From contig CAZSGP010000002.1 of NCBI GenBank assembly GCA_964606485.1, positions 74,766 to 138,765 on the forward strand: a stretch of 64,000 nucleotides of DNA, given 5' to 3'. How positions within the stretch are numbered: position 1 is the first letter of the stretch; each line of letters starts with the position of its first letter. Shown here in pieces: positions 9,338 through 44,056 of the stretch. The DNA comes from an uncultured Planctomycetia bacterium (GTDB taxonomy: Bacteria; Omnitrophota; Gorgyraeia; 2-02-FULL-51-18). Made by a program: the position numbers and the translations under genes. The notes beneath the pieces were generated by a model, which saw nothing but the letters and a program-made list of their open reading frames with translations, searched no databases and had not been told where the DNA came from.

Positions 9338-9412
9338 CTGTAGGGGCGCGATTTATCGCGCCCTTCTCTTTGAATGATTCATCGTATTAAAAGTGGGCGC
9401 AATGAATTGCGC
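9338..9412 (-). terminator. nested GC-rich hairpin pair between the lysS 3' end and the lolC start; probable lysS terminator and possible lolC leader structure
   Basis: Two hairpins (gggcgcaattcattgcgccc and gggcgcgataaatcgcgccc on the minus strand) enclosed by an outer inverted repeat gtaggggcgc…gcgcccctac. The first is followed by acuuuuaau. Confidence 0.5.
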
Positions 9413-9414
9413 CC

Positions 9415-10881
9415 CTACGATTCTTTTTTCATCTGTGGGAATAAAATTACTTCGCGAATCGAGGGTTGACCGGTAAGCAGCATCACGAGACGATCGATGC
9501 CGATGCCGAGCCCTCCGGCCGGAGGCATGCCGTGCTCGAGGGCCATAATAAAATCTTCATCAATGGTGTCGTAGGTGCTCTCTTTGCCTTTTTCTTGGAG
9601 CTCTTCGGCGAAACGTTCACGCTGCTCGATGGGGTCGTTGAGCTCGGAGTAACCGTTCGCCAGTTCCATGCCGCCAACGTAAAGTTCAAAACGCTCGCTC
9701 AAGTAAGGATTGGATTTATTTTTTTTGGCGAGCGGACAAAGCTCGGTGAAATAATCCGTCACAAAAACCGGATGAACCACATTGTCTTTCGATTTTGAAT
9801 TTGCACCTGGCTCCAAAAGTTCAGCCACAATATTCACAATCTGCGAACGCGAAAGATCTTTGGAGGCAACATTCACGCCCTTCGCTTGAAGCTTGGTCAC
9901 CCACTCACTAATTTCCATATCGGGTGTAATTCCAAACGAATCTTTCATGAGCTGGGCAAACGACACGCGCTCCCATTTGGAAAAATCAATCACGCGGTCG
10001 GCGGTTTCAATTTTCAAAGTCCCAAAAACAGTCTGCGCGGCGTTCGTGACAATTTCTTGAGTCAAATCCATGACGTCGTTGACATCGGCGTACGCCGTGT
10101 ACACTTCGAGCATGGTGAATTCGGGATTGTGCCGCGTGGAAATTCCTTCGTTGCGAAAACTTTTATTCACTTCATACACTTTGTCGAAACCGCCGACGAG
10201 TAATTTCTTCAAATAAAGTTCGGGGGCCACACGCAAGTAAAGGCTCATATTCAGCGCTTCGTGATGCGTCTTAAAGGGTTTGCCGGCCGCTCCCCCGGGA
10301 ATCGGATGCATCATCGGCGTTTCGACTTCCAAGTACCCTTTGTCGTCGAGCACGCGGCGCACCGAGCGCACAATCAGTGAGCGGTTAATAAATATTTTTT
10401 TGACGTCGTCGTTGGAAATTAAATCCAAGTACCGATGGCGGTAACGCGTTTCCACGTCTTTTAGACCATGCCATTTTTCGGGCATAGGACGCAGACTCTT
10501 CGAAAGAAGCTTAAGCCCAACCACTCGAACGGAAATTTCTCCGGTCTTCGTTTTAAACAGTTCGCCCTCGACGCCAATGATGTCGCCAATATCGAGCGCT
10601 TCAAAAAGTTTAGTGGCATCAGGCCCGATCAAATCCGGCTTTACAAAAAGCTGGACGCGGCCGGTTTCGTCTTTTAAATCACAGAAAGTGGTTTTGCCCA
10701 TCGAGCGCACCGCAGAAAGTCGTCCCGCCGTCTGCACTTTGCGATGCTCTTCGAAATGCTCGACCATGGGGCCGATCATCTCGGTTTTAAGAAACTTTCC
10801 GCCAAAGGGGTCCACGCCTAGGGATTTGGCGGTTTCGTATTTCTTGAAACGTTCTTTTAGAATCTCATTTTGCTCGGACAT
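9415..10881 (-). CDS. lysS: lysyl-tRNA synthetase, class II
   Basis: 488 aa with an N-terminal OB anticodon-binding domain and class II catalytic motifs (…FRNEGISTRHNPEFTMLE…, GGLGIGIDRLVMLL). Confidence 0.95.
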   Translation of the reverse strand: MSEQNEILKERFKKYETAKSLGVDPFGGKFLKTEMIGPMVEHFEEHRKVQTAGRLSAVRSMGKTTFCDLKDETGRVQLFVKPDLIGPDATKLFEALDIGDIIGVEGELFKTKTGEISVRVVGLKLLSKSLRPMPEKWHGLKDVETRYRHRYLDLISNDDVKKIFINRSLIVRSVRRVLDDKGYLEVETPMMHPIPGGAAGKPFKTHHEALNMSLYLRVAPELYLKKLLVGGFDKVYEVNKSFRNEGISTRHNPEFTMLEVYTAYADVNDVMDLTQEIVTNAAQTVFGTLKIETADRVIDFSKWERVSFAQLMKDSFGITPDMEISEWVTKLQAKGVNVASKDLSRSQIVNIVAELLEPGANSKSKDNVVHPVFVTDYFTELCPLAKKNKSNPYLSERFELYVGGMELANGYSELNDPIEQRERFAEELQEKGKESTYDTIDEDFIMALEHGMPPAGGLGIGIDRLVMLLTGQPSIREVILFPQMKKES

Positions 10882-10986: not shown

Positions 10987-13900
10987 TTAAGCGGACGCTC
11001 CAACAAACTGGAGCGCAGTCTGGCGGGCCTTGATCATCTGGTCTATGAGCACGCGATCGACTTTGACGGTAAGCTTAGAATAAAGCGTGGCTAATGAATC
11101 TGAAAAATTCTGCAGCGCCTCAACAACTTTCTTGAGCCCCAAGTCTTTGACGGCTGCGATGCGGTCACTTAAAAAGGATTGGGTCTTATCCGGCAAAGTC
11201 GACAACGCTTCGGGTGAAACTCTAGCAATGATGCGCGCCACAGCAAACAAAGATTCCAAAACTAAAGCACTGTAACCGTCTTTTTGATCCTCAACAGGAA
11301 CTAACGTTAGCGCGAATCGTGCACCAAGCGCCTTGCGTTGATTTTCAGGAACGTGACTATCTGCCAATAATTTTAATAATTTTTCCCGGTGATTTTTGTT
11401 TCCGGCTGTCGTGATAAATACGACTTTGGAAGTTTGAATCGACACATCCCCCTGCCCAATCACCACGATCTGCTCAGGTCCCAGCACAGAGCCTCTTTTT
11501 TGAGCAGCTTCGAGCTGTGGTTTAATAAATCCGATTTTATTTTCACTTTCAGGATTCCCAAAAACTGCCGGATCAATGAGAAGCGCGATAGACGACTCCG
11601 TGTCCACCACCCCTTTTTGCTCAAGCGAATATTGTTTGAGTGCTTTTTGCGCTCCGAGTGCGGCCCTATAAACGCGTCCAAGCTCCACCGCTACTTCCCC
11701 AGCCTGAGCCGTATCCGTCTGACGAAGCGTTTGCACAAGCGGTGCTCTCACGTTTCCTTGCGAAATTCGGGCATTGATTTCTGTCTGCGTAAATGAAATG
11801 GTTTGTATAGCCTCGGGCTTGCTGCCTAGGTTTGCGGTGAAAATTACTTGGGCGCCGTTTGAAGTGGGCTCTACCTTAAAGAAGGAAAGCCTCTGTGAAT
11901 CCGGCTCCCCACTCTCAATCGACATCTCGAGAGGCGTCAACACGCTCACCCCTTTCGCAGTGCTCGCAGCCAAATCCAAAAGAATACTTTGATCTGAATC
12001 CGAAATTTTTTCTGCCCTTGAAAGAGTTTTACTGGCAAATCGTGCGCCGTTTGGTAAAAACGATTCTTTGGCTTGATTGAAATGAAAAGCGCCGGATACT
12101 GCTAACCGCGCGCCACTTGTCGCGTCGTCGCGAGTCTTGGGTGTAGACGATGCCTGAACCTCGTCTTTTTTGTGCCAGAGATTCAACACCCAAAATTTTG
12201 CGCCACTTGGGCTACTGACCTGGACCACTCCGTTTTTCTGAAGCTCCGTGTTTGGCGCTTTAAGAAAGTTGATAAGTATTTCAGCGCGCACGCGAGCTGT
12301 TCCCAGTGCGCTTAAGATATCCCGACCCGCTTCATTTCTATCTCCCGCAAAGTGAGGGTTTAAAGCGGCCTGAGCCATGCCCACGGCTGAAGCTAGCTTA
12401 TTTTTGATGTCGTAATTTCCCAAAAGTTCGTAGCGTGCTCCAAAGCTGACCGTCTGCGCAGTAATTTGTTCGCTAAGGTTTTTGGATTTTGCTTTTTGAT
12501 CAAGGAAATCTATAAGGTCTTGCATTGCTGAATCCGCCTGAGACAAAATAGCCAATTTTTTCTCGTCGCTATTATTTTCAAAGTCACTTAAAAGATTCTG
12601 CGTTTCTTCAATTTTCTCTCGAAGATGTGAAGCGATAGCGCGAGCCTCGACAAGCGCTCGAAGCGTTTTAAAAACCTCGGGCGCAGCATTTTTGTCCGCT
12701 GCCGGCGAAGCGTCGGGCATCTTCTTCTGCAAATCCTCAATCGCCGTGACGGCTAAGGCGTAGATAATGGCGAGCCAAGTGGAGCTCGGGTAGCTCGAAG
12801 AAATACGTGATCTTAGGCTCTCAGCCGAATCGCGACCGTTATGAATGTTATCAACATAAATAGGCCCCAAATTATCCTTGGCAGTAAAACCATTCGCCGC
12901 GCCTTTTTTTGCTTGGTTGATCGCCTGGATCGCTTCTTGTGCGTAACTAACCGCGGCTTCCCTCATATTTTTTTCGTGGGTCGAAGACCAATTTGGAGCG
13001 CTTTCAATTAGACGGATAAATTTTTCTAGAGCGCGGAGATTTTCATCAGCCAACCGCGCTCCCCCTACCGGATGAAGCTCAAACGTATTCAGAGTAGGCA
13101 ACGCCCTCATCCCCTGCTGTCCCTGTCCCGGCTCATCTGTAAAGCTAAACCCGATCACTTCAAAGTCATCCTTGATTTCCGTAATAATCACTCCGTCGGC
13201 CGGAAGCGTTGTAGCTTCGCTAGGGGCCGAGACAACAAGCTGAGTGAGATCATTTTTGAAATATCCAAAAAAACGGTAGCGGATTATAGTCGCGGGATCC
13301 GTTGAAGCGGGTGGATTAAATCTAAAAACAAAAATATCTCCTTTTTTAGAAAATAATCGGGGTGCGACTAGATGAAAGAGCTGCCCCCTAATGTCCATTT
13401 GTTGATAAACGTCTTCGGTCATGACACTGTCCTTTGGACGCTCCGGGTTCGTGCGTGGGTCAAAGAGAATCACGGTTTTATTTTTTTCAGCTTGATCCAA
13501 CGTCTCAGAAACTCCTGGATCAACGCTTAATTTGACGATCGACATCGGAAAGCCAACCGTGACATTGACAATCCCGCCCGGGTCAATGAACGCACCAAGT
13601 TCTCCCCGGTAAGGCATCTTGTCCTTTTGGTAGCCCTCCACAATAATTTTTACGTCTTTCATTTTGTCGCGAATGGCAGCCGGAAACGTCACGCGCAAAA
13701 TGTCTCCCGGCACAAGTTTCACTTGCGGATAAAAATTTAGAGTCAGTGCTGATCCGCTGTAATCCCAATTGTAAAATGACTTTTTACTGTCGTAAGCCTT
13801 CAGAAAATCAGGCAAGCTGACGGGAGTCAGATGATCGCCGAGGATTTGCCAAACACCTTCACGCTCTCTGCTTCTGCCGAAAAAATAAGAAGAAAAAATC

Positions 13901-16900
13901 AACAAAGTTACGGCAAGATAACGAAAAAGAGTTTGGCCCATTCCGGCCGGGCGGTTTTCATCAGCTTTAGCCATCCGCGCACCACTCTCTACTACTAATC
14001 CAGCCGAAGGTTGCACCCTTATTTTTCGTCCCTCAAAATAATCGTTCTCCAGATAAACGCGCCATTCTTTCGGCTGCGTTTCGTCAGAGGCCCGAGTAAC
14101 CACGGTAAATCCAATAGGCCCTAAATGATAAGATAGCTGATCTTGGTTATCATAATAAATTGGCGCAACGGAAATAACATTCTCAATTTTTTTTCGAGTA
14201 AATGTTTTCTGAGACCAAATTGTAATTGGGTGAGAGACGGTCACGGAACTTGGATCGCTTTCATTAAAACCCAAGGCGTACGACACATCACCCTTCTCAA
14301 ACGCTCCGGCGCCCTGCATAAAATAAACGTCAGCTGAATGGGGGTCTAGAAATCGCAAAGCAATCAAAGGAGACCCTGGCCCCATCAAGGATAGTGCCGG
14401 CCGATCCGCTACCCAAGGCACATCTAAACGATCATCGGTAATTCCCAAGCTATTTTTAGCTTTGTGCGTATGAAAATTATATTCAAGAAGAGTTGTCCTG
14501 TCTTCGCCGTGAATAAGGTCCAATGATATAAGTCCGTTTTGCTTTCTTGTATTCTTCAACTCTAGTTTGCGTCCATCCGGCAACACTCCACGATTTATAC
14601 GCCCAATGACACTTTCTGCAAAATCTGAAACTAACCATCGCGCCGCCAAAGATGCTGAGTGATGCCGCTGCTTCTCCCAGTGGGTAGATTCCGTGACCTG
14701 CTCTTCACGCGCCTCCTCCCAATCAGCAGGTACGCCATTAACCGGCTCGCAAATAAACAGCTTCCACGAAACGGGCTCACCGTTACTGTCGATCTGCCAT
14801 TTAAATTGGCTTGGGAGCAGTTGTGCTCCATTTTTTTCTAAAAGCGGGAGTCTCATGTAAGATCCGCCAACTAACACACCCTCTTTAACATTCACCTCTT
14901 CCTTAACTAGCCCATATTTCCGATTGACTTGGATTTCGGCTGACATAAATGCATTTTTATCTACTCGGAAGCTACTATCTTGGGTCTGCCATGCATCCCA
15001 AACGCGAACAAAATCTTTTTCGATTCGTAATAGATACCGATTAAGACCATTCCCCAAAATAACAACCGTGCCATCATCAAGCTTCGCCAACTCTACTTGC
15101 GGTACCTGCTGCCCGGAGATTTCATTTAAACGAGGTCGATACTCATCATCCAGCAATTCGGGCCTTGGCCAATTTTTTTGATCGGAAATTACATGTGGAG
15201 AATGAGCTTCCATGTGACGCAAAAATTCTAAAGATAAGCTATTTTTTGAAACACTTCGATTTAATTTTACACTTTGATAAAACCCGACAGCTCCGGTTAA
15301 AGCCACCGCGAGTACACCAAATAAAATGGGATTAAAATTGTTCGCAAACAGTATAATAGCCGGCAACAACCCCGCTACTCCTACTAGAAACAAAGAACCC
15401 CAAAAAAGAAGTGAGGTGTTAGAAAGCATCTCAGGATCTAGTCGCCAAACGGAATAATTATCTTCTGATTTATTTTCAAAAAATCTCATTGATGCGCTGG
15501 CCAACCTCGCCCCCGTCACAACCGACACACTGGGAGAAACATGGCGAACTATCGGCCCGATCTTATCGGCGGCCGCCCAATAAACTTTATCGCTTTCATC
15601 GACTTTTGAAAGCAGGTTGCCGTATTTTTCAAATTCAGGACGGCGCTTTTTAAACCAATCAAATACGGAGCGAAACGTAGGAATTCCCTGCTCACGCTCC
15701 CTTTTCCCAAATTCTGGCAAGACATCCAGCAAGGCTTTTGCGTCTTCGACCGTGCTTTTTTCGGAGATTTCATAAACCGCATTTCGCATGGCCGGGTATC
15801 TGGGGTCAGTTTTTTTAAGCCTTAGAAATCCCCATAAAAGATAATCAAAAACAATTTCGCGCAAAAGCAGATCTTCGATCTGCTTATCATTTACCGAAAC
15901 CCCTTTCTGGATTTGGGTTTTTGCTTGATCGAGCGGTTTAATCGCGTATGACAATGCAGTTGCGGCCTCCCGAATGTTTCCCCCCAACTCGTTTCGCACC
16001 ACACCGCTTATTTGATGAAGCGTTCCTCTTAAGAAAACAATAGTGTCGTTCGGATATTCATTCGCTATTTTCTTTAGCGCCTTTGCAAATATTTTATCCC
16101 GCTGAATATCACTCGACGCGCTTAGCTCCAAAGCCCTCTTAGCCACCCGAAGGTATTCCTCAGGAGATATTCTTTCGCGAGTCATTGAGTTTAAGATAGA
16201 GTCTCTCTGGAAAGAGGCTGTTTCATAATCTAAGGCGCTTTTAAAATAAAGCTCTCTGTCCTCCCTGGAATAGGTTTCATCTCCTTCTACCAGTAAATGC
16301 TTTATTTTATCCCTATTTCGGAGCAAGACCCCCATAACCCCCCTTTCAAATGAGGAAAGATTACGAATGTCCCTTTCAAAAAAAGCTTGCCGATAAATCT
16401 GCACGTTATAATCAACCGCCCTGTGAAACACGGCTTTAAATGAATCTAGCTGCGCTCGTGTTGCGCGGCCTGTAAAAAGAGCCTCTTTGGTAAGACCAGT
16501 CCTAACCGTTTCCGAGTCTCCTAACAACGCATTCATCTGTACTCCCCCAAACTCAAAGAAAAATGCAACTTGACCGGCCGGAAGAGATTCAAGCTGCTTT
16601 TCTAAAACCATAGCGGCGTCTTGAGCATCAGTCGCGTCGTCATGGGCGGAATAGACCCCGACAAATTTCTGCGGCCGCGTGCCGCTGCGCAACCCAAAGA
16701 AACCCAAGCTCGCCAGTACAAAAACTGAAATGACTGCGAAGAATTTTTGCTTATTCCAAAAACTTATTTTTTTGGATTGCTGAACCCCATTAGGGCTGTC
16801 GAATAATTGATCAATCGTGCCTAAGTATTCTTTAGGCTCCGTCTCTTTATAAATGCTCTGAGAAGGGACAAAACTAATCACATTTTGATCGGCCATCTCA

Positions 16901-16947
16901 AAAGTAAACCGTATCAATCCATCACTAGGCAGTCTCTCCAAAGTCAC
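10987..16947 (-). CDS. giant hypothetical protein (1986 aa). N-terminal TM, possible Tiki/TraB/GumN-like region, three further TM helices mid-protein, long helical C-terminal half
   Basis: Uninterrupted 5.96-kb ORF with a GTG start at 16947; an in-frame ATG also exists at 16896. TM segments: FFAVISVFVLASLGFFGL; LLFWGSLFLVGVAGLLPAIILF…ILFGVLAVALTGAVGFY; LFRYLAVTLLIFSSYFFG. The motif IVFLRGTLHQISG resembles the C-terminal GxxH motif of TraB/Tiki domains. This is weak, eyeball-level evidence. Confidence 0.6.
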   Translation of the reverse strand: MTLERLPSDGLIRFTFEMADQNVISFVPSQSIYKETEPKEYLGTIDQLFDSPNGVQQSKKISFWNKQKFFAVISVFVLASLGFFGLRSGTRPQKFVGVYSAHDDATDAQDAAMVLEKQLESLPAGQVAFFFEFGGVQMNALLGDSETVRTGLTKEALFTGRATRAQLDSFKAVFHRAVDYNVQIYRQAFFERDIRNLSSFERGVMGVLLRNRDKIKHLLVEGDETYSREDRELYFKSALDYETASFQRDSILNSMTRERISPEEYLRVAKRALELSASSDIQRDKIFAKALKKIANEYPNDTIVFLRGTLHQISGVVRNELGGNIREAATALSYAIKPLDQAKTQIQKGVSVNDKQIEDLLLREIVFDYLLWGFLRLKKTDPRYPAMRNAVYEISEKSTVEDAKALLDVLPEFGKREREQGIPTFRSVFDWFKKRRPEFEKYGNLLSKVDESDKVYWAAADKIGPIVRHVSPSVSVVTGARLASASMRFFENKSEDNYSVWRLDPEMLSNTSLLFWGSLFLVGVAGLLPAIILFANNFNPILFGVLAVALTGAVGFYQSVKLNRSVSKNSLSLEFLRHMEAHSPHVISDQKNWPRPELLDDEYRPRLNEISGQQVPQVELAKLDDGTVVILGNGLNRYLLRIEKDFVRVWDAWQTQDSSFRVDKNAFMSAEIQVNRKYGLVKEEVNVKEGVLVGGSYMRLPLLEKNGAQLLPSQFKWQIDSNGEPVSWKLFICEPVNGVPADWEEAREEQVTESTHWEKQRHHSASLAARWLVSDFAESVIGRINRGVLPDGRKLELKNTRKQNGLISLDLIHGEDRTTLLEYNFHTHKAKNSLGITDDRLDVPWVADRPALSLMGPGSPLIALRFLDPHSADVYFMQGAGAFEKGDVSYALGFNESDPSSVTVSHPITIWSQKTFTRKKIENVISVAPIYYDNQDQLSYHLGPIGFTVVTRASDETQPKEWRVYLENDYFEGRKIRVQPSAGLVVESGARMAKADENRPAGMGQTLFRYLAVTLLIFSSYFFGRSREREGVWQILGDHLTPVSLPDFLKAYDSKKSFYNWDYSGSALTLNFYPQVKLVPGDILRVTFPAAIRDKMKDVKIIVEGYQKDKMPYRGELGAFIDPGGIVNVTVGFPMSIVKLSVDPGVSETLDQAEKNKTVILFDPRTNPERPKDSVMTEDVYQQMDIRGQLFHLVAPRLFSKKGDIFVFRFNPPASTDPATIIRYRFFGYFKNDLTQLVVSAPSEATTLPADGVIITEIKDDFEVIGFSFTDEPGQGQQGMRALPTLNTFELHPVGGARLADENLRALEKFIRLIESAPNWSSTHEKNMREAAVSYAQEAIQAINQAKKGAANGFTAKDNLGPIYVDNIHNGRDSAESLRSRISSSYPSSTWLAIIYALAVTAIEDLQKKMPDASPAADKNAAPEVFKTLRALVEARAIASHLREKIEETQNLLSDFENNSDEKKLAILSQADSAMQDLIDFLDQKAKSKNLSEQITAQTVSFGARYELLGNYDIKNKLASAVGMAQAALNPHFAGDRNEAGRDILSALGTARVRAEILINFLKAPNTELQKNGVVQVSSPSGAKFWVLNLWHKKDEVQASSTPKTRDDATSGARLAVSGAFHFNQAKESFLPNGARFASKTLSRAEKISDSDQSILLDLAASTAKGVSVLTPLEMSIESGEPDSQRLSFFKVEPTSNGAQVIFTANLGSKPEAIQTISFTQTEINARISQGNVRAPLVQTLRQTDTAQAGEVAVELGRVYRAALGAQKALKQYSLEQKGVVDTESSIALLIDPAVFGNPESENKIGFIKPQLEAAQKRGSVLGPEQIVVIGQGDVSIQTSKVVFITTAGNKNHREKLLKLLADSHVPENQRKALGARFALTLVPVEDQKDGYSALVLESLFAVARIIARVSPEALSTLPDKTQSFLSDRIAAVKDLGLKKVVEALQNFSDSLATLYSKLTVKVDRVLIDQMIKARQTALQFVGASA

Positions 16948-17025
16948 CTTAGCAACCTGCCCGTAGCGCCGGGCATCATTGCTGATATGCGCTTTGAGAG
17001 CTTTTACGATAGACCCCGCAACAGG

Positions 17026-20000
17026 TTATTGCTTTGAGGACTCGACAATAGGGCCAGCTAACCGCGCGCCTGACCCAAATTGTGGTTTCGAAGGATCATT
17101 AAGGCCTTGTCTGCTCGCATTCCGCGCATATTCCTTAGCCTCACGTTTAATCTTAGCAGCTAATGCAGGGTTGATTTGCTCCTGAATTTTTGCTAAGCCA
17201 GCTTCTATCGCACCGTCGGTCAAATTAGGACGACCATCAAAAGCTGATGCGCTTAATCTGACTAATTCATCGTGCAAGCCTGTAAATGTCTCTACGCCTT
17301 CCTTGATTCGAGTGGCCACAAAACTAGCTATAGCACTCGCAAGAGGGGGGTAAGCTTCCACAGTGATTGGCGGACCATTGGAATCTGTAGCTTTTTCAAA
17401 TCTCGGATGCTCAAGCATTAACCGAGCATAACAATAGGCATAATACAACCTTTGAGCAACACCATCTTTGCGAAGAACATCTTTAGGCTCTTCTAGCATT
17501 GAAAAACTTTCGTCGTTGCGATCTAAAAATGATTCGGGTTCATTTTGAAGGGGAACGATTTGCTCTGAATTGAGTTCAGCTATTAAGTCCCGGAGTAAAT
17601 CCAGTGGATCCCAAGCATCCGATCCCAGAAACCGGCGCTGTATACTTGCCAGCTCGGCCGCGCGAGACCATGGAACTGGATACTCTTCCCAATTGTCCAA
17701 CACAAAACCAACTAACGACTCGAAGTCTGGATCTGCCATCAAATCTCGTCTTAACTTAGTTTCCGAAAACGGTGTATTCATTATCCGCATCAGACCCCGA
17801 CCAACTTCTTTTTCTAAAATACCCCTGGGAGCATCTTCCAGCAGCTCTGCGGGAGCACCATTCGGATAGACTTGTCTAAAATATGCCAAATTTCTTCGTA
17901 AAATGCGCACCGCTTGCTTTCTTTTATCGATCTCTATTTTGACATTTTGGGCTATTTGAAGTAACGCTTGGCAATCATTCGTTCGCAAAAGCGTCAGCGG
18001 AGAGGAAATAAAAAAACTTAAGCCAACGTTGTAATATTTTTTATCAAGAAGTAATTGCCGGTAGAAATCAATTTTTGATTCCTCTAAGGAGAATGGATCT
18101 GGGAGCAAAGAGGTGATTGTGGTTAATTCCGCGACAAGATTTGCAATTATTTCTGCATCCTTATTAACTCGATAACTTGATTTAAGGTACTCGTGGAGTG
18201 TATTTAGCATTTCAAGACTCACATACCTCTGCAAATCGAGTAACGTAGCCCTGTATAAAATTTCGCCTAATTCATCCCTTGCTTCTTCCCTTTCTTGTGG
18301 AGCTTTTGAAGTCAATCTAACCTTCAAGTCTTTATCATTATCTTTTTTCTCACCTATCATAGACGCGACGGTCTTATCTTGGAACCGACTGATCGCCTCC
18401 CTTTCTTGAGATTGAACGGTATCTAATAACTCTTGAAACCGATCTTCTAATCCACTGATCAATTGCCTACTTTTTCCACTAAGCGCTGGATAATAACCCT
18501 CTTCAACAACTAACTCCAAATTCAAAATATATTTACGAAACTCTAATCGAATCTCAAGGAGATCCGCTGACTTTAGATATAGTGAATTCCCTGTAAGAAG
18601 GGAATAATTAAGCTCTGAAACAACGTAGAGTAGATTTGCCAGTCCATCTTCAATTTTATACACATCTTGATGAGGGGTAGATTTCCATCGATCAAATATA
18701 TCCCGTAAGGTTCCTCTTTTGGTTATCGCCTCCCTTATTTCTTTTACCTCGTCAGATTCGTCCGCCATCCTCGCCCCGGCCTTTTCTGCAGCCTTAACCC
18801 CCGGCAGGGTATTAAGAGACACTAAAAATTGAATGCCCGTTCCTTGCTTTTCTGCGGCCTCTTCATAATCCTTGTCAATTTTAAAACCCCTTTCCTTTAA
18901 ATAAACGCGATAAAACGAAATCTCCGATTTTTTGCTGGCGACCCAAGTTACATTTGTAATTTTTTTATCTCTTAGATTTTTAAAAAATGCATCTAATAAA
19001 AATGACCCATGACTAGCTCTTTTAACCTTAACGGCTATCGCATCCATTTCGAGCGGCTTACCGCGCACTGCGCTAGAAGCAATAAATCCACCAAGAGAAC
19101 CATCTGGTTGAATTAACAGATAATGATCCTTATCTTCCAAATCATACCCCCATGCTTCAGCGGATTGTGGGCTATAGTCCCCTCGCCCCTTGAAAGCCGC
19201 GCGCTCTAAAATTGATAATTTTTCGGCCGCGTCATCCAGAATCACCTGAAAATCCTTTTCTTTTTGTAAGCGAGAATAAATTACTTTCCACTCCACAACT
19301 TTTCCAACTCCCTGTTTTTCTAAAATGGTGGGCAGTTGTTCGTATGGGATGGAATTTATCAACAAAAGTTTTTGGTTTTCTGTGTTTGTGCCGGAAAGCC
19401 GCGCTCCACTATCCACCCCCCTATCTTGAAACGCCTCCGAAACTTTTGCGTGATTGGCTTTGATTTGCTCCGCCAATCTCGACGCAACAAGTCGATCTGT
19501 AATTTCTGGAAGCCAATCCTCGTCCGCACTTCGATACATTTCAGCTAGAGCGCGTGCCGTCTCAAAGTTTTCACGTTTTCCGCTAGCCATTTGAATTTCG
19601 GAGGGTTTCAATCCCTCAAGAGGCTCAAGCAGCACCTTTTCGTACTTCGCCTGATTGGTTTCCTGCGTCACCTTCGGGGTTAAGACGATGTAAGAGTATC
19701 CGCTCTGCTGAAAAAGTTCTTTGAGATGTTCGGTATGATATCCACCTGTAATCAAAACGACTGCGTTGTCATTCCCGCGCAAGCGGGAATCTTGTGGTTC
19801 TGATCCCCGCCTTCGCGGGGATGACAGTTCTTTTTCAATATTTTTCAAAAATGCCAAATCTCTCTGATCCACCGAATCGTAAAAATCTTTGAGCGCTTGG
19901 CTTCCGGTTTCCAATAAATCTTTGTACGAAACCAAATCTTCAAAGTACCCGGTCTCGATGAGCTTTTTGTTCAAGAATGCCAAATAAGAGACGGTCGCAA

Positions 20001-21279
20001 AATCAGGTTCGTTGGCTTGAAACGAACGAAACTCTTCATTCGTCATTTGAATGTTGTAGGCCGTTTGAAGCAGATGAATGTACCGGTCTATGGCGTGGAT
20101 TAGCAGCGTGTCATTGCGAGAAGCCGAAGGCGACAAAGCAATCCCGTTCTCAGAGCGAGATTGCTTCGCTGTGCTCGCAATGACGGACTGATAAACTTCT
20201 TCTTCAAACTGAGCCTTCTCGTCTGCAAGCTTGCTCAGCTCAATAGAAGTAAACTCTTTCAAGTATTCTTCATAGCGAATTAAATTGGAATAAGGCTTGA
20301 GAGTTAAACCCTTTTCTCTAGCGCTATTTAAAGTATTTTGAAAGTAGCCAAATAAAGACATGCGGTCGTTGTAAATCTCATTTTTCTTGGCGAGATAATC
20401 CGCCAGATTCTGCCCGCCCTTTTTCTGAAGCTCCACCACGAGCGAGGCGAGCTCTAAGTTCGCTAGGTTAAAATCGAGAGACGCTTCTTTGGCTTGAAGG
20501 TTTTTTAGCTTTGAAAGATTGGGGTAGGTGGAAAGAGCGGGATTGCTTCGCTGCGCTCGCAATGACAAGCCCGCCTTTTCAGCTAAATCTAAAAGCCTCT
20601 TAAAACTCGTTTCAAAATTTCCATCTTTATCTTTTTCGTAATTCAGTAGTTCCTTCGGGTAAATTTTATTTTTCGCTTTTTGGAGTGCGGATTGGATGGT
20701 CTTTAAATATTCCAGCACCTCTTGCCGTGTGGCCGCGAGCTTCGAATACGCCTTGATGCTTTGCGCGTACAACGCTAGATTTTCGATTCCGATAATCTGA
20801 ATCGGGTGATTCGTGGTGAGATTTAAATACTCCTCACCTGAAATCTGCGCGTCCATCAAAAGGGTTTTCGCTTTTTGTTCCAGCGTGTTTTTGGAAATAG
20901 CATTTCGGACTTCAGTGAGCGAAACATCTCCCTCGCCGCCTTCAACGAGAATGGTGGATACGCCGTATCGCGTAATAATTTGGTCGAGCGCACCCGCAAG
21001 ATTTTGTTGTCCTGAAAAATTGGAGTGCGGATCTTGGATGTGGATCAGTAGGGGCGCAGTGCCTGCGCCCACGCCCACATGAATCTCCTTAAGCGCGCAA
21101 AAATCCATCGGCGTGACAAATTGAGCTGGATTTTGAATGAGCCCGGCAAGTTCCGCCGTCTTCGTGGGAGCCGGGGACACAGAAATTCCAGGGGCGGCAT
21201 AGGCCAATTCCTGAAAGAGGAAGGCCGCTATGAGACTTGCGGATATTAGCCTTATATTAAGTTTTTTCTTATTGGGCAT
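17026..21279 (-). CDS. giant hypothetical secreted protein (1417 aa). Signal peptide, Tiki/TraB/GumN-like N-terminal region interrupted by in-frame palindromic elements, GNAT-like segment, long helical C-terminal region
   Basis: ATG start with N-terminal signal peptide (LISASLIAAFLFQELAYAAPG). Motifs KEIHVGVGAGTAPLLIHIQDPHSN and VVLITGGYHTEHL resemble Tiki/TraB GxxH motifs. Residues ~700-790 (…GFIASSAVRGKPLEMDAIAVKVKRASHGSFLLDAFF…SFYRVYLKERGFKI) resemble GNAT motifs A and B. The family calls are inference. Confidence 0.6.
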   Translation of the reverse strand: MPNKKKLNIRLISASLIAAFLFQELAYAAPGISVSPAPTKTAELAGLIQNPAQFVTPMDFCALKEIHVGVGAGTAPLLIHIQDPHSNFSGQQNLAGALDQIITRYGVSTILVEGGEGDVSLTEVRNAISKNTLEQKAKTLLMDAQISGEEYLNLTTNHPIQIIGIENLALYAQSIKAYSKLAATRQEVLEYLKTIQSALQKAKNKIYPKELLNYEKDKDGNFETSFKRLLDLAEKAGLSLRAQRSNPALSTYPNLSKLKNLQAKEASLDFNLANLELASLVVELQKKGGQNLADYLAKKNEIYNDRMSLFGYFQNTLNSAREKGLTLKPYSNLIRYEEYLKEFTSIELSKLADEKAQFEEEVYQSVIASTAKQSRSENGIALSPSASRNDTLLIHAIDRYIHLLQTAYNIQMTNEEFRSFQANEPDFATVSYLAFLNKKLIETGYFEDLVSYKDLLETGSQALKDFYDSVDQRDLAFLKNIEKELSSPRRRGSEPQDSRLRGNDNAVVLITGGYHTEHLKELFQQSGYSYIVLTPKVTQETNQAKYEKVLLEPLEGLKPSEIQMASGKRENFETARALAEMYRSADEDWLPEITDRLVASRLAEQIKANHAKVSEAFQDRGVDSGARLSGTNTENQKLLLINSIPYEQLPTILEKQGVGKVVEWKVIYSRLQKEKDFQVILDDAAEKLSILERAAFKGRGDYSPQSAEAWGYDLEDKDHYLLIQPDGSLGGFIASSAVRGKPLEMDAIAVKVKRASHGSFLLDAFFKNLRDKKITNVTWVASKKSEISFYRVYLKERGFKIDKDYEEAAEKQGTGIQFLVSLNTLPGVKAAEKAGARMADESDEVKEIREAITKRGTLRDIFDRWKSTPHQDVYKIEDGLANLLYVVSELNYSLLTGNSLYLKSADLLEIRLEFRKYILNLELVVEEGYYPALSGKSRQLISGLEDRFQELLDTVQSQEREAISRFQDKTVASMIGEKKDNDKDLKVRLTSKAPQEREEARDELGEILYRATLLDLQRYVSLEMLNTLHEYLKSSYRVNKDAEIIANLVAELTTITSLLPDPFSLEESKIDFYRQLLLDKKYYNVGLSFFISSPLTLLRTNDCQALLQIAQNVKIEIDKRKQAVRILRRNLAYFRQVYPNGAPAELLEDAPRGILEKEVGRGLMRIMNTPFSETKLRRDLMADPDFESLVGFVLDNWEEYPVPWSRAAELASIQRRFLGSDAWDPLDLLRDLIAELNSEQIVPLQNEPESFLDRNDESFSMLEEPKDVLRKDGVAQRLYYAYCYARLMLEHPRFEKATDSNGPPITVEAYPPLASAIASFVATRIKEGVETFTGLHDELVRLSASAFDGRPNLTDGAIEAGLAKIQEQINPALAAKIKREAKEYARNASRQGLNDPSKPQFGSGARLAGPIVESSKQ
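19768..19825. repeat. 58-bp double-hairpin palindromic element inserted in-frame in the 1417-aa gene (encodes SSPRRRGSEPQDSRLRGNDN)
   Basis: gtcattcccgcgcaagcgggaatc-ttgtggttct-gatccccgccttcgcggggatgac. Two perfect 8-bp-stem hairpins in inverted orientation with gtcat…atgac termini. Confidence 0.75.
20110..20184. repeat. 75-bp nested palindromic element (gtcattgcgag…ctcgcaatgac) inserted in-frame in the 1417-aa gene (encodes …VIASTAKQSRSENGIALSPSASRNDT…)
   Basis: Terminal 11-bp inverted repeat gtcattgcgag / ctcgcaatgac. Inner inverted repeats caaagcaatc / gattgcttcg. Confidence 0.7.
20535..20566. repeat. partial (right-half) direct copy of the 20110..20184 element, 30 of 32 nt identical to 20153..20184, also in-frame
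   Basis: gagcgggattgcttcgctgcgctcgcaatgac compared with gagcgagattgcttcgctgtgctcgcaatgac. Confidence 0.7.
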
Positions 21280-21356
21280 AAATTTCGAGTATACCGTCCC
21301 TTTGGATCAAGTATACCCGAGATTTAAGCGATTACAAGTCTAGCTACCAACTCAAC

Positions 21357-22517
21357 TTACTGGCGCTTATTCTGTCCTTGACCACCCTGTTTAGCGCCTT
21401 TGCCAGCACCCTTATTCGGGTTATTTTGGGCTTGCCCATTGTTCGGATTGCCCGGTCCGCCCTCTTGGCGATTATTGTTCATCTGGTGGACTTGCTCTTG
21501 ACGATTGTCTCTCCGCTCCTGCATCTGTGCGTCTCGTGGACCATTGGGGCGATCCATCGGCCCGCCTTGACCCCGATCTCTAGGGCCTTCGCCAGGTCTA
21601 TTCATCTGGGGGCCACCTTCTTGTTTGAAGCGAGGACCGCGATCAGCTGAATTATTTTTCATTCGATCTAATTTTTGACCCGGCTCACGATTAGCAGGAT
21701 TCTGCTGTGCTCTTTCTTTTAATTTTTGCTCAAGCTCCTTTTGGCGACCGGGAGGGGCGGTATTTTTTAAAAATGCTTTCTCAGGATCTTTGCGCTGGCC
21801 GTTTTCATAAGCACGCTTCACCTGATCAATGCCCTGAATTTTCCCACGACGACCCATTCCCTCAACTTGCTGAATTTTCTTGTCGATGCCGCCTTGCATA
21901 AGCTTGCCGCGCTCAAATTCTTTCGACTCCATTTTGACCGGCGCAATCGGACGATCCCCTCTAAATTTCACGGCGGATTTTTCGTTGTTTTTAATGATTT
22001 GTGGGGTTTCATCCACACTGCCTTTTTCATTCATTCCAAAAACATAAACATCTGATTCCGAAAAGTTATAAATGTTCGTTTCACCGTTCTCAACTGCGGT
22101 GCGATATTCGGTTCCACGCGCGGCGGCAATGGCCGTTGGCGTTTCAACCGTAAAGCTCGACTCTGACGGGAGGGCTTTTAGTTTTGCGTAGATCCCACCC
22201 TTGTCCATTTTAAGATTCACCGGAAAAATAGATTGAATGCTGACGCTTGATTTCTCTTCGATGCGAGCGACGTTTTTCCAGTCACTGTCAAACGCCAAGT
22301 CCACCGAACCGCCTTCCGCAACCTCGACCCGGTCATCGGCCTTTAGAATGTCGCCTTCCTTGATAAGAGTTTTACCGCCATCGCCAATTTTAAAGGCGTT
22401 CCCTTCCACCGTCATCACCTCGCACTGATAGTCCTGATCTTGCGCGAAAACACTGTCATTGCAAAAGGGGGCTAAAATTAGTACGGCTAGACTCACGGCT
22501 TTCATCAAGGCTTTCAT
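21357..22517 (-). CDS. secreted FecR-domain protein with a long Q/N/G/P/R-rich low-complexity C-terminal tail
   Basis: Signal peptide MKALMKAVSLAVLILAPFCNDSVFA. A FecR-like beta-sandwich pattern (KEGDILKADDRVEVAEGGSVDLAFDSDW). The last ~130 aa are compositionally biased (…GPRDRGQGGPMDRPNGPRDAQMQERRDNRQEQVHQMNNNRQEGGPGNPNNGQAQNNPNKG…). Confidence 0.65.
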   Translation of the reverse strand: MKALMKAVSLAVLILAPFCNDSVFAQDQDYQCEVMTVEGNAFKIGDGGKTLIKEGDILKADDRVEVAEGGSVDLAFDSDWKNVARIEEKSSVSIQSIFPVNLKMDKGGIYAKLKALPSESSFTVETPTAIAAARGTEYRTAVENGETNIYNFSESDVYVFGMNEKGSVDETPQIIKNNEKSAVKFRGDRPIAPVKMESKEFERGKLMQGGIDKKIQQVEGMGRRGKIQGIDQVKRAYENGQRKDPEKAFLKNTAPPGRQKELEQKLKERAQQNPANREPGQKLDRMKNNSADRGPRFKQEGGPQMNRPGEGPRDRGQGGPMDRPNGPRDAQMQERRDNRQEQVHQMNNNRQEGGPGNPNNGQAQNNPNKGAGKGAKQGGQGQNKRQ

Positions 22518-41564: not shown

Positions 41565-43727
41565 TCACCAAGAATACGAAACGCTAGCGCTATAGCTTCT
41601 GCCGGGCGCTGGAACATAAAAATTATCGGTTAGCGTCGGATCGGTGACAAAGGCAGACGGCGCAAGGCCCAAGCTTCCCGCAGACTCATACTGCTCATCA
41701 AGAAGATTCTCAACCCCAAAATTAAATTCCCAACTCTTCAAGCGGTACGTCGTTTTCAAATTAAAAACCGTGTAGGCCGGCAGTCTACGGCCATTGCGAT
41801 CGTTGTCGAGATCGTTCACAAGCACTTGCTTTGAAACGGCAACCATATTGAGATTCATATTCAAATTTTCCATGGGCTCAATCAAGAATGCGGTAGTCAG
41901 GCGATTTCTGGGAACCATCGGGATATGGTCCCCACTCTTTTGAACACCGCCGTTGTCGTTGGATTTAAACGTGGCTTCGGTATATGTGTGGGACGTTTTG
42001 AGTATCAACCACGACAGGCACTTCACCTGAAAAGAATTTTCAATGCCGGCTCGTTGGGTTTTTCCAAAATTAGAGTTCTGTCCAAAAAGATGTGTAGCGT
42101 CTGTTAAGTTGGGGTCGAATCCTATTTCATTGGTAGTACGGTTTAAAAATAAGGTGCTCGCCGCACTCCACGCCTTAGCCGCCCACTTGACTCCCAACTC
42201 ATAATTTGAAGCCTCCTCGGGCTTTAGCCGGGGATTGCCACCGAACGCCGGGTTAGCGTACAAATCCGCAAGCGTCGGCGTCCGAAATGATTTGCTCAGC
42301 GTACCGGTTAGAGTGAGCGAATCTACCACTTTCGCGGAGACTCCAAACGAATGGCTAAATTTATGCATCGAAGCCGGGATGTTGTTTCCAATGTTTACAA
42401 GATCGTTGTTTGTGATGTCGACATCGTCATACCGCATTCCAAAGTAAGCGCCCACGCGGTCATTCCACGACAAGGATCCTTTTCCAAAAACACCGAGCAC
42501 GTCTTTTTCGGAAGTGGAGTCGACCGCGTTCCCCAAACGGGATAAGGTGACTTTGGAACGGTTAAAATCTTCCTCATCGATGGAGTTCTCAGCATAGTCT
42601 ACGCCGATTAAAAATCCCTCCACGAGATCCCACATCACGTCTTTGGAGTGATCGAGCTGAATCGTCGTTCCCCAAGTGTTGTTGGTGAGATCGAGTTCGT
42701 TGTCATCCCGCACAAACGTGGCGAAGTTCGCGACCGATATTTCATGACTCTGCCGCGCGTACACGTTTCCACTCAAAGCAGCACTTTCAATCGGCTGCAG
42801 CTGAAAATCCAAAATACCCAAATGCGTATCCATGTCCGCAAAATTACGCGGACGTTCGGTCGCTTTACGGCCCATGTCGCGCAGATAAGACTCGCGGATA
42901 CTGCCGGAGCGGTCAAGATGCGCGTCGGCGTACAAATATGACGCACCCATTTTCAATACGTCAGTTGGATTCCAAGAGGCCTTGGTGTAAAAATCCTCTT
43001 TTTCAACGGAGGTATTTTTACGAAATCCTCTGGAGTGATAAAGATCCCCGGTCATCGCTAAACCAAAACCATCTTGCTTCACCGTGGTCTCAAAACTTTC
43101 CTGCCATCCATCAAAACTTTCAACGCCGGTTTTTATTTTTGCGTGCACACCTTCCTGAGTGGGGGTCAGCGCCACCAAATTCACCGCGCCCGCCATCGCA
43201 CCCTCCCCATAAAGAAACGAGGCTCCCCCTCGATTAACTTCAATACGGTCAATCATGCTAATCGGAATCAGCGCATAGTTGATGTTATTAGACTTGGCTT
43301 CATTAAGTCGCACGCCGTCCAACAAAAATACAAAATCGTCTCCCTCGTTAAATCCTCTAAAATCAATCGTCGCCTCTTCCCCGTTGCCGGATAAATCGCT
43401 CAACAGCACACCCGGAACATCTTCGAATGCCTGAGGAATATTCTGCACGTCTCTTTGGATGAGTTCGCGACGGCCAATCACCGTTGTCGACGTCACCGAA
43501 TTTTCTGCAAATTCATTCATGGGACTCGATAGACGCTTACCGCCCACCACAATTCCCCCTAAATCAAAAATGGAGTCCGCCAAAGTGCCAGCCGCTTTAA
43601 ACGGAAGCTCCACAAGATCTTGCGCGGGATTATTTGGCTGAGTTTCTTTTTTTTCTGAAGCTCCAGCAAGAACGGGGTGAATAAGCATTGCTAAGAGAAG
43701 GGTCCAAACGGTTATTTGCTTGCGCAT
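41565..43727 (-). CDS. TonB-dependent outer-membrane receptor, probably a cobalamin/corrinoid transporter (BtuB-like) given the upstream riboswitch
   Basis: Signal peptide, plug domain, 22-strand barrel, C-terminal …SYSASVSYSW aromatic terminus. The start is set at MRKQITVW (ATG 43727) behind an AGGAAGG RBS. The ORF-track start at 43751 lies inside the terminator U-tract and RBS. Confidence 0.85.
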   Translation of the reverse strand: MRKQITVWTLLLAMLIHPVLAGASEKKETQPNNPAQDLVELPFKAAGTLADSIFDLGGIVVGGKRLSSPMNEFAENSVTSTTVIGRRELIQRDVQNIPQAFEDVPGVLLSDLSGNGEEATIDFRGFNEGDDFVFLLDGVRLNEAKSNNINYALIPISMIDRIEVNRGGASFLYGEGAMAGAVNLVALTPTQEGVHAKIKTGVESFDGWQESFETTVKQDGFGLAMTGDLYHSRGFRKNTSVEKEDFYTKASWNPTDVLKMGASYLYADAHLDRSGSIRESYLRDMGRKATERPRNFADMDTHLGILDFQLQPIESAALSGNVYARQSHEISVANFATFVRDDNELDLTNNTWGTTIQLDHSKDVMWDLVEGFLIGVDYAENSIDEEDFNRSKVTLSRLGNAVDSTSEKDVLGVFGKGSLSWNDRVGAYFGMRYDDVDITNNDLVNIGNNIPASMHKFSHSFGVSAKVVDSLTLTGTLSKSFRTPTLADLYANPAFGGNPRLKPEEASNYELGVKWAAKAWSAASTLFLNRTTNEIGFDPNLTDATHLFGQNSNFGKTQRAGIENSFQVKCLSWLILKTSHTYTEATFKSNDNGGVQKSGDHIPMVPRNRLTTAFLIEPMENLNMNLNMVAVSKQVLVNDLDNDRNGRRLPAYTVFNLKTTYRLKSWEFNFGVENLLDEQYESAGSLGLAPSAFVTDPTLTDNFYVPAPGRSYSASVSYSW

Positions 43728-43740
43728 AAATTTCCTTCCT

Positions 43741-43777
43741 AAAAAAGACAAAACCCTTGGAGAGAATTCTCCAAGGG
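43741..43777 (-). terminator. intrinsic terminator hairpin forming the expression platform of the cobalamin riboswitch (perfect 12-bp stem plus U-tract), immediately 5' of the receptor RBS
   Basis: Minus strand: cccuuggagaGAAUUCucuccaaggg followed by uuuugucuuuuuu, then AGGAAGGaaauuuAUG. Confidence 0.7.
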
Positions 43778-43870
43778 TCCATGTCCCTGATTGCAGGGGC
43801 CCTAAAATGTTTAGCGCTTTTTCCGGCCACGGGAAAAGGCAGCATTCTTATTCGAAGGTAGGTCTTCTGA

Positions 43871-44035
43871 CTTCCCAGCCCTAGCTTAGCTAGCCTTCCC
43901 AATCCGGTTTACGAATCAGTGGCGACAATTGCTAAAAGGTTTTTCTCGTTCCGAGAAAACTGAGTTACAGCGGCGGGACCGTAGCCGATTTAAACGGCTT
44001 TCCCTATTAATGTCCGATTAAGGACAGCCTTCGAA
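43871..44035 (-). ncRNA. cobalamin (AdoCbl) riboswitch aptamer
   Basis: Minus-strand RNA contains UAGGGAAagccGuuuAAAUCggcuacGGUCCCGCCGCUGUAA (core), GCCACUG…GGGAAGGC, and a B12-box AGUCAGAAGACCUACC. An 8-bp P1 pairs UUCGAAGG (5') with CCUUCGAA (3'). Confidence 0.75.
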
Positions 44036-44056
44036 CAGTTTTTTATTTCAAAAAGG

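Follow-up and report, generated by a model that had tools for sequence, protein, structure and literature searches.

Two segments of a large gene, here called E2 and E3, are probably copies from the CGTC/TGTC-tagged REP superfamily, whose members are also called Ssn-related motifs; their spread would be linked to Ssn nucleases, with copies surviving where they are harmless. We put the probability of this reading at about 75%. Both segments lie in a 64,000-nt stretch of DNA (the window), within a gene of 1417 codons on the reverse strand (positions 17026–21279) identified from the list of open reading frames and its translation. A single ORF stays open across E2 and E3. Two contigs, one of them a 20,238-nt Logan contig from run SRR12487046, encode exactly the same 1417-residue product, which makes an assembly error in the host gene unlikely.

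The N-terminus of the host protein is predicted to resemble a signal peptide, and a Pfam search assigned it no family. The host protein and 22 other proteins have in common an N-terminal domain of about 555 residues (matches cover query residues ~1–555); four of the 22 are labelled Candidatus Omnitrophota by their source. The invariant residues of this domain include Q82, D83, H85, N87, Q91, E113 and G114 near its start and G512, G513 and H515 near its end. The C-terminal part of the host protein has no counterpart in the homologues.

Hairpin units in the host gene

E2 (20110–20184) is a 75-nt heterodimer of two units with their tags pointing outward, read as 25 codons (residues 366–390, VIASTAKQSRSENGIALSPSASRND). 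A unit scan placed the long unit (34 nt) on the forward strand at 20110–20143, with the structure GTC-ATTGC-GAG-AAGCCGAAGGCGAC-AAA-GCAAT-C and a preceding T that completes a TGTC tag. The short unit (26 nt, GTCATTGCGAGCACAGCGAAGCAATC) occupies 20159–20184 on the reverse strand and is preceded by a C, giving a CGTC tag. The 15-nt spacer between them (20144–20158) belongs to a central palindrome with 15-nt arms that match at 87%. The two ends of E2 are exact 11-nt inverted repeats, GTCATTGCGAG (20110–20120) and CTCGCAATGAC (20174–20184), and between the inner arms caaagcaatc and gattgcttcg 9 of 10 positions pair, as a preliminary description of this DNA had reported for both pairs. The palindrome of that description therefore stands, but its picture of a MITE-like element bounded by terminal repeats does not; the element is an inverted pair of a 34-nt and a 26-nt unit. 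As single-stranded DNA, E2 is predicted to fold with −22 kcal/mol (z = −3.4 relative to shuffled sequences). The idea that the elements are designed to be free of stop codons in all frames was rejected as weak: four of six frames of E2 are open (P about 0.10 against shuffles), and the lengths of dimers, taken modulo 3, fall equally often on each residue.

E3 (20534–20566, reverse strand) consists of a solo short unit (GTCATTGCGAGCGCAGCGAAGCAATC, 20541–20566) followed by a 7-nt tail (20534–20540) that is shared with E2. Its 33 nt are read as 11 codons (residues 238–249, LSLRAQRSNPAL). In the same orientation, 31 of the 33 nucleotides of E3 are those of E2 positions 20152–20184. The likeness noted earlier (30 of 32 positions over 20535–20566) is thus slightly longer, and the copy is not a partial one, since it comprises a complete 26-nt unit plus 7 nt. 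A 26-nt pattern covering the E2 and E3 copies had no match in 100 shuffles of the window, and no further GTCATTGCGAG-type copy occurs in the 64 kb.

E1 (19768–19825), which encodes residues 485–504, is an inverted pair of 24-nt units, the left on the forward strand (19768–19791, GTCATTCCCGCGCAAGCGGGAATC) and the right on the reverse strand (19802–19825, GTCATCCCCGCGAAGGCGGGGATC), each with an 8-bp stem and a 4-nt loop. Of the 28 positions of the Neisseria NTS consensus, the left unit agrees at 26 and the right unit at 23. The GTCAT...ATGAC termini that E1 had been said to share with the E2-type elements are present. E2 and E3 do not really form the separate second family proposed at the outset: a YGTC tag, an AT-first stem and a C after the stem are common to all three elements, and E2/E3 and E1 are two types within one superfamily.

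The host gene also contains a fourth in-frame palindrome, a GTAG-tagged hairpin on the forward strand at 21048–21072 (GTAG-GGGCGCAG-TGC-CTGCGCCC-AC) with a perfect 8-bp stem. It encodes residues 70–78 (VGAGTAPLL), where the host protein has extra residues relative to most homologues. The GTAG-type elements of the window are this hairpin and an intergenic pair at 9340–9418; both contain GTAGGGGCGC.

An Rfam scan of the window gave one match above the gathering threshold, a cobalamin riboswitch at 43840–44047. In the region 19700–20650, Rfam returned only sub-threshold matches at chance level, the highest being FtrB (25 bits against a threshold of 66).

Unit architecture and relation to tagged repeats

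The consensus of 477 distinct units is Y-GTC-ATTGC-GAG...C-GAA-GCAAT-C, with length modes of 26 and 32 nt. In each unit an unpaired YGTC tag precedes a basal ATTGC/GCAAT stem; the stem is topped by a conserved internal loop (GAG...CGAA) and then a variable distal hairpin, and it is immediately followed by a C. The GTC and the trailing C were fixed by the search pattern that yielded the 477 units, so their invariance in that set is not independent evidence. Across the family, 56% of units have a T before GTC and 35% have a C; here the E2 short unit has C, and the E2 long unit, E3 and both E1 units have T. The arrangement GTC-stem...stem-C is found in all YGTC-tagged units of the host gene (counted as six), and an AT-first stem is found in all units.

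The units of the window, the E2 long unit among them, are consistent with this consensus. Units within one substitution of the E2 short unit occur in 22 fetched loci, and units identical to the E3 26-mer occur in 13 fetched loci from other taxa. At least 120 stretches match the unit pattern, from Proteobacteria, Bacteroidota, Chloroflexota, Planctomycetota, Patescibacteria, Cyanobacteria and others. The family spans many bacterial phyla and is confined to no single lineage. Paired units in the fetched loci are arranged tag-out (106), tag-in (38) or in tandem (34), and solo units are also present.

Several of these properties are shared with the CGTC-tagged REPs, whose tag variants are CGTC, TGTC and CCTC and whose families 1–4 have stems of 8–9 bp starting A-T, A-T and loops of 4–5 nt (Di Nocera, De Gregorio and Rocco, 2013; PMC3733652). 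Members include Neisseria dRS3 (CGTC-1) and Rickettsia conorii RPE-6 and RPE-4 (CGTC-1 and CGTC-4), and intragenic in-frame singletons and dimers are known, the dimers coding for 20–30 residues, with sometimes two copies in a gene (PMC3733652). The units of E1, E2 and E3 have the unpaired CGTC or TGTC tag, the AT-first stem, the short tail after the stem and the spread across phyla in common with that group. Inverted dimers, often heterodimers, are frequent in it; here E1 and E2 are dimers, E3 stands alone, and each of the three is in frame. E1, with its 8-bp stem and 4-nt loop, is close to CGTC-1, but E2 and E3 have a 5-bp stem, an internal loop and a variable tip over 26–34 nt or more, which places them outside the sizes of families 1–4. 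The host phylum (Omnitrophota) and the host gene are new with respect to the survey, and repeated use of the same loops in orthologues is not described there (PMC3733652).

Units beside GIY-YIG nuclease genes

At one fetched locus (L066), a GIY-YIG ORF is enclosed by two inverted GCGAG-type units in the geometry of E2. The encoded protein has a single domain of ~95 residues that matches Pfam PF01541. With a gene between units that are otherwise arranged as in E2, this locus makes E2 look like the gene-less form of such a nuclease cassette.

The association extends to other loci, from many phyla. Nuclease ORFs near units were found by phmmer, and in 71 of 80 metagenome relatives a unit lies no more than 200 nt from the gene; 50 of the 80 have units on both sides. 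GTCATTGCGAG forms the start of 165 of the approximately 215 flanking units. Across these 80 loci there are 6.6 units per kb up to 200 nt from the nuclease gene and 0.22 per kb more than 500 nt away, so that units are locally enriched 30-fold. Among solved structures, only the UPF0213 GIY-YIG proteins 1zg2 and 1ywl are related.

A literature search with the exact sequence GTCATTGCGAG yielded no paper printing it in a relevant context; a search with GTCATTCCCGC led to the description of the Ssn proteins, which cut single-stranded DNA beside such hairpins and for which an NTS-ssnA-NTS layout was described (Chenal et al., 2025; PMC11893778). The GTC just 5′ of the palindrome and the C just 3′ of it are positions reported as critical for cleavage and binding in that system (PMC11893778), and the YGTC-tagged units of the host gene have both. 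Further points of agreement are repeats on one or both sides of a small single-domain GIY-YIG gene (for this unit type, in other genomes) and a wide phylogenetic spread. The published SRM pattern, HGTCWYN(0-2)YYVSBRHN(0-5)WNVSBRGN(0-2)RNCYNB, matches only the E1 left unit in the window (19767–19794) and matches neither E2 nor E3. A term search of the main text of the Ssn paper found no mention of in-frame or intragenic copies. Transposition by Ssn proteins has never been demonstrated, and the paper remarks only on the IS-like layout (PMC11893778).

No GIY-YIG/Ssn gene was found in the 64-kb window or in about 190 kb of related Omnitrophota DNA, none of the 120 relatives listed is named Omnitrophota, and when the 80 metagenome loci were searched by neighbour similarity for an Ssn locus of Omnitrophota origin, none was convincing (identities of at most 48%). 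This differs from the Ssn systems described, and nuclease targeting of E2 and E3 is putative for this organism. With no nuclease gene found in the available DNA, the mobilization of E2 and E3, like the mobility of the E1, E2 and E3 repeats as a whole, is an inference. The repeats would spread, directly or indirectly, via single-strand-specific cutting by Ssn nucleases at the hairpins, and copies would persist only where harmless. In this compact genome the survivors would be those in intergenic spacers and in a handful of loops or turns of this large secreted protein that permit them, where they would be translated as 10–25 extra residues.

Insertion sites in orthologues and alternative origins

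The inserts in the host gene are derived. Residues at the E2 site are absent in 19 of 23 homologues, in agreement with the earlier claim that E2 was inserted in frame, and the empty sites have a consistent xxLLxxQD pattern. In four other orthologues the same loops hold repeats of types particular to each genome; the types found there are GCGAG, TTCGAG, CCCG and CTGAG. Insert carriers are scattered on a neighbour-joining tree. A single ancestral insertion at the E2 site is less likely, given these scattered carriers, their differing repeat types and the conserved, ancestral-looking empty sites.

In a structure model, two of the three inserts (E1 and E3) fall in loops and E2 falls at the tip of a helical hairpin, all at low confidence. 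E1 is modelled as coil (pLDDT below 50 at residues 491–502), E3 lies in a predicted coil at residues 236–252 (below 50 at 243–247), and E2 is placed at the tip of the hairpin formed by H348–373 and H384–408 (pLDDT 61–71). The suggestion that the insertions would map to surface loops is borne out by the model to this extent, with loops for two of them and a helix-hairpin tip for the third.

The ORFs run through elements whose length is not divisible by 3, and such elements must be translated for the frame after them to be preserved. In other loci, 30% of occurrences of the unit sequence are spanned by stop-free stretches of at least 300 codons, compared with 70% of random positions. The most likely reason for recurrence at the same loops is that selection removes insertions elsewhere. 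The preliminary proposal of repeated invasion by small palindromes that are tolerated when translated agrees with these results, most homologues being free of inserts and others having different types at the same loops. Passive tolerance does not obviously explain two observations: the neighbouring 1986-residue gene has no inserts, and the junctions at the E2 site are nearly the same in three lineages.

A different view, which we consider unlikely, is that the gene family is a preferred target of the repeats or that the repeats have been co-opted, as recombination or transformation sites for a mosaic surface protein or as selected loop extensions. Six of the eight tagged hairpin units of the window are packed into the host gene, which takes up 6.6% of the window's length, and about 24 units lie inside five orthologous genes compared with about five in the surrounding ~98 kb. 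At least four palindromic repeat families occur, in different lineages, at the loop before the GGYH strand; that several unrelated families share one loop is better accounted for by a tolerance filter than by an enzyme with a specific target. A recombination or transformation role has been proposed for dRS3/NTS near variable Neisseria genes. The NTS repeats modulate transformation in Neisseria (PMC11893778). Only the N-terminal domain is common to the homologues, which suggests frequent recombination. Two orthologues (P0006 and P0007) share a dimer within an island of ~150 nt at 92–98% nucleotide identity (third positions 93%), compared with 62% over the whole domain (third positions 43%), but high-identity islands are also found without a repeat (P0005/P0006, residues 50–69, 93%), and the E2-site flanks of different orthologues are not unusually similar. 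The near-identical island around the shared repeat resembles a co-conversion tract. A more specific form seems to us slightly less likely still: the N-terminal domain would be a landing pad where at least five hairpin types entered the same three or four loops independently in separate lineages, with Ssn-associated repeats passing between diverged orthologues through homing-like or transformation-driven gene conversion, or with repeats selected as loop extensions that diversify a surface protein, as opposed to random insertion and passive tolerance.

It is improbable that a DDE or HUH transposase recognizing the 11-bp terminal inverted repeats moved E2, as it would move a classical MITE derived from an insertion sequence by deletion. 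The small size and perfect terminal repeats of E2, and the gene-containing version with the same ends at L066, are what such an element would have, but the gene enclosed there encodes a ~95-residue GIY-YIG nuclease and not a transposase, and CGTC repeats on either side of a transposase gene were not encountered in the 2013 survey (PMC3733652). The entity that is repeated is a single hairpin unit, found solo, in tandem and in both inverted geometries, and no direct repeats that could be target-site duplications flank E1, E2 or E3. That the segments are ordinary ancient coding sequence with incidental palindromes, or an assembly artefact, is very improbable: nothing interrupts the ORF, and the peptides have a hydrophilic, loop-like character, but the segments are missing from most homologues, no chance matches are expected, the same nucleotide sequence recurs in unrelated phyla and is rarer in long ORFs than at random positions, and the two contigs agree.

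Under the preferred reading, of tagged REP units retained where harmless, close precedents are also the Rickettsia palindromic elements, reported as 'selfish DNA in protein-coding genes', which are in frame and translated and were predicted not to conflict with the three-dimensional fold or the function of the host protein (PMC10969869). As here, several families occur in one genome; the first reported RPEs were about 150 bp long (PMC10969869) and from Rickettsia, whereas the elements of this free-living or episymbiotic candidate phylum are 26–75 nt long, with four elements of three types in one domain. GTAG-tagged REPs and BIMEs, which are associated with RAYT transposases, are likewise short tagged hairpins with frequent dimers and occasional intragenic copies, but the tag of E2 and E3 is YGTC, and the gene linked to their unit type is for a GIY-YIG nuclease instead of an IS200/IS605-type tyrosine transposase.

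In-frame REP dimers of 20–30 residues are already known (Rickettsia RPE-4/6), and the current understanding of CGTC/Ssn-linked repeats is unchanged by our findings. They add Omnitrophota to the bacteria with in-frame REP insertions, formerly Rickettsia and a small number of cultured species. The odd low-complexity peptides of this gene family (such as VIAS..AKQS, SLRA.RSN, ..SRND, ..LAMT and SRLRGND) are translated hairpin repeats, and the DNA repeats behind them are also present in genomes of many phyla. The unit type GTCATTGCGAG...GAAGCAATC, which the published SRM pattern misses, is tied to a large clade of ~95-residue GIY-YIG nucleases, and this tie could aid the choice of enzyme-target pairs for the proposed applications of Ssn proteins in cutting single-stranded DNA. 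The loops used recurrently in the orthologues serve as a natural map of where an uncharacterized domain permits insertions.

Palindromic segments in the host gene

The host gene (17026–21279, minus strand, 1417 aa) is an uninterrupted ORF across three palindromic segments, E1, E2 and E3, in agreement with the in-frame positions given in a preliminary description made from the sequence alone. E2 (20110–20184, 75 nt, aa 366–390) is the nested palindrome reported there, and it was confirmed: its 11-nt termini (GTCATTGCGAG and CTCGCAATGAC) are exact inverted repeats, inner arms are present, and the centre is palindromic as well. It folds as single-stranded DNA with −22 kcal/mol (z = −3.4). E3 (20534–20566, aa 238–249) has the orientation of the right part of E2 and agrees with it at 31 of 33 positions (previously counted as 30 of 32), and a 26-nt pattern spanning the E2 and E3 copies had no matches in shuffled sequence. 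Related ends, GTCAT...ATGAC, are present in E1 (19768–19825, aa 485–504). The palindromes are unlikely to come from an assembly error, since the exactly identical 1417-aa product is encoded on two contigs.

We modeled residues 1–600 with AlphaFold from a 23-sequence alignment (mean pLDDT 81.9). In the model, E3 falls in coil between helices 222–235 and 253–267 (pLDDT <50 at 243–247), E1 in coil preceding strand 506–512 (pLDDT <50 at 491–502), and E2 at the tip of a helical hairpin (helices 348–373 and 384–408; pLDDT 61–71). The suggestion that the insertions map to loops is thus supported by the predicted structure. The N-terminal domain contains invariant Q/D/H/N/E/G residues (HIQDxHxN...EG...GGYH), and its fold matches to erythromycin-esterase-like proteins are weak and non-significant.

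A GTAG-tagged hairpin absent from the preliminary description (21048–21072; GTAG-GGGCGCAG-TGC-CTGCGCCC-AC, perfect 8-bp stem) lies in frame within the host gene as aa 70–78 (VGAGTAPLL), a position at which most homologues are shorter. It would be a fourth palindromic insertion, from another superfamily of REPs (tagged hairpin repeats). An intergenic, REP-like inverted pair of GTAG-tagged hairpins (GTAGGGGCGCGATTTATCGCGCCC / GGGCGCAATGAATTGCGCCCCTAC) occupies 9340–9418, and the GTAG tag of its right-hand unit provides the TAG stop codon (9417–9415, minus strand) of the lysyl-tRNA synthetase gene. Next to the host gene, within 10987–22517, are an ORF of 1986 aa, likewise very large and without a Pfam family, and a FecR-domain gene. 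Another giant ORF adjoins the orthologue at loci L124 and L208, with a FecR-domain gene about 6.6 kb downstream at L124; AbiEii genes adjoin the orthologues at L124, L125 and L207, L124 also having a YhaV toxin gene. A cobalamin riboswitch (RF00174, 91.7 bits) is present at 43840–44047 (minus strand), upstream of a 728-aa ORF (41565–43751).

The hairpin unit and its nuclease clade

Scanning the orthologous loci, together with about 200 loci fetched from other organisms, showed that what is repeated is the single hairpin unit rather than the 75-bp element. The consensus of 477 distinct units, with length modes of 26 and 32 nt, is Y-GTC-ATTGC-GAG-[variable distal hairpin]-C-GAA-GCAAT-C-Y. E2 is made up of two inverted units, one of 34 nt and one of 26 nt, which have their tags outward and are separated by a 15-nt spacer; short-plus-long pairs are common among those listed for other genomes. 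E3, formerly read as a 32-bp partial copy, consists of one complete unit of 26 nt and a further 7 nt common to E2, and units identical to its 26-mer occur in 13 fetched loci from unrelated bacteria. Pairs in the fetched loci are more often tag-outward (106) than tag-inward (38) or tandem (34). We looked for target-site duplications and found none.

The pattern GTCATTGCGAG-N(4-24)-GAAGCAATC matched at least 120 stretches in species-representative genomes; the matches listed include Alpha-, Gamma- and Deltaproteobacteria, Bacteroidota, Chloroflexota, Planctomycetota, Patescibacteria, Cyanobacteria, Zixibacteria, Helicobacter, Sporomusa and one Omnitrophota MAG. This class of repeat is described in two papers. 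CGTC-tagged REPs (tag CGTC or TGTC), defined by Di Nocera et al. 2013 (PMC3733652), have an A-T, A-T stem start and frequently form dimers; they take in Neisseria dRS3 and Rickettsia RPE-4/RPE-6, include intragenic in-frame singletons and dimers coding 20–30 aa, and have no dedicated transposase found. Chenal et al. 2025 (PMC11893778) demonstrated that Ssn, small proteins of the GIY-YIG type, bind ssDNA at hairpins of this kind, among them the Neisseria repeat NTS (CGTCATTCCCGCGMAVGCGGGAATCYRG), and cut it there; ssn genes are flanked by repeats in many phyla. The left unit of E1 passes that study's degenerate pattern for the Ssn-related motif (SRM) and agrees with NTS at 26 of 28 positions. 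The E2/E3 units retain GTC and the trailing C yet do not pass the SRM pattern, and their stem architecture lies outside CGTC families 1–4.

At one Planctomycetota MAG locus (L066), a GIY-YIG ORF lies between two inverted units of the E2/E3 (GCGAG) type, in the same geometry as E2 but with the gene in the middle of the pair. For this protein (~95 aa, single-domain, PF01541), the protein database contains at least 7,982 relatives. Among 80 metagenome loci encoding relatives at 55–71% identity, 71 have a tagged hairpin ≤200 nt from the gene (50 on both sides), and 165 of ~215 flanking units start with GTCATTGCGAG. Unit density is 6.6 per kb ≤200 nt from the nuclease gene vs 0.22 per kb at >500 nt. 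On these results, one large clade of Ssn-like nucleases has the E2/E3 unit type as its partner repeat. The 64-kb window and the other fetched Omnitrophota DNA contain no nuclease gene.

Derived inserts and recurrence in orthologues

The 1417-aa protein has no Pfam family. A database search gave 22 homologues (four with Candidatus Omnitrophota as named source, the others without organism name) that share only the N-terminal ~555 residues. The E2 position is empty in 19 of the 23 aligned sequences, in line with the central proposal of the preliminary description, repeated invasion by small palindromic repeats with coding insertions tolerated, which proved right. Empty sites have a consistent short motif (VY-xx-LLxx-QD-xxL-RAIDRY), and in a neighbour-joining tree the four carriers fall at scattered places; the empty state is therefore ancestral and the filled state derived.

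We compared the E2-site junctions of the window, L002, L003 and L125. They are near-identical in three lineages, in which the element's last codon, GAC (Asp), takes the place of the conserved Asp in the ancestral QD motif, with about five of the ancestral codons missing. The fourth lineage, L002, has a clean insertion five codons upstream of these junctions. At L125, the right end of the element is duplicated (18 nt), and the protein encoded there (P0009) has a Pfam intein-splicing match.

Each orthologue examined has its own repeat type in this gene: GCGAG in L002, GCGAG and TTCGAG in L003, CCCG types in L124 and CTGAG in L125. The E2 position holds an insert in four lineages, one of a different type, and the E1 loop has received at least four unrelated palindromic repeat families in different lineages. 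Other palindromic repeats occupy the equivalent loop at L002 3130–3222, L003 2208–2288 and L209 (homologue P0006, aa ~500–530), with peptides of the types SAIRNPKSAI, GKQKAES..FHFPLSAF and GLRMED..SSILNLRSS. The orthologue ORFs continue through elements of length not divisible by three, so the frame beyond each element is preserved only when the element itself counts as coding sequence. E2 has four of six frames open (P about 0.1) and dimer lengths that are multiples of three are not favoured; the repeats are not obviously built for translation.

Across genomes, stop-free stretches of ≥300 aa span 30% of units vs 70% of random positions; most units thus lie between genes and a smaller share within them. 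Filtering is the simplest reading: the only repeats to survive in compact genomes are those in intergenic spacers and at a small number of loops or turns that accept them. Copies within a genome are as similar to each other as, or more similar than, same-site copies of other genomes. A stronger but less likely reading would make the host gene a preferred target, or have recombination carry the repeats from one orthologue to another. The five orthologous genes contain ~24 units vs ~5 in the surrounding ~98 kb, and six of the eight bona fide tagged hairpins in the window, counting the GTAG-tagged one, are in the host gene. Two sister orthologues, P0006 (L209) and P0007 (L124 10889–11036), share a hairpin dimer of the CCCGA type, located at a fourth site. 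This common dimer, which speaks for the stronger reading, lies in a ~150-nt island of 92–98% nucleotide identity vs 62% background, but similar high-identity islands are present without repeats in other pairs. Third codon positions in the island are 93% identical vs 43% over the whole domain, and it could be a recombination tract or reflect DNA-level constraint.

Already on record are tagged hairpin repeats, the Ssn nucleases that go with them, and intragenic dimers read in frame, as in Rickettsia. New here are the host lineage and host gene, the finding that the same loops are used repeatedly in different orthologues, and the explicit link between a nuclease clade and the GCGAG unit type, a type overlooked by published search patterns.
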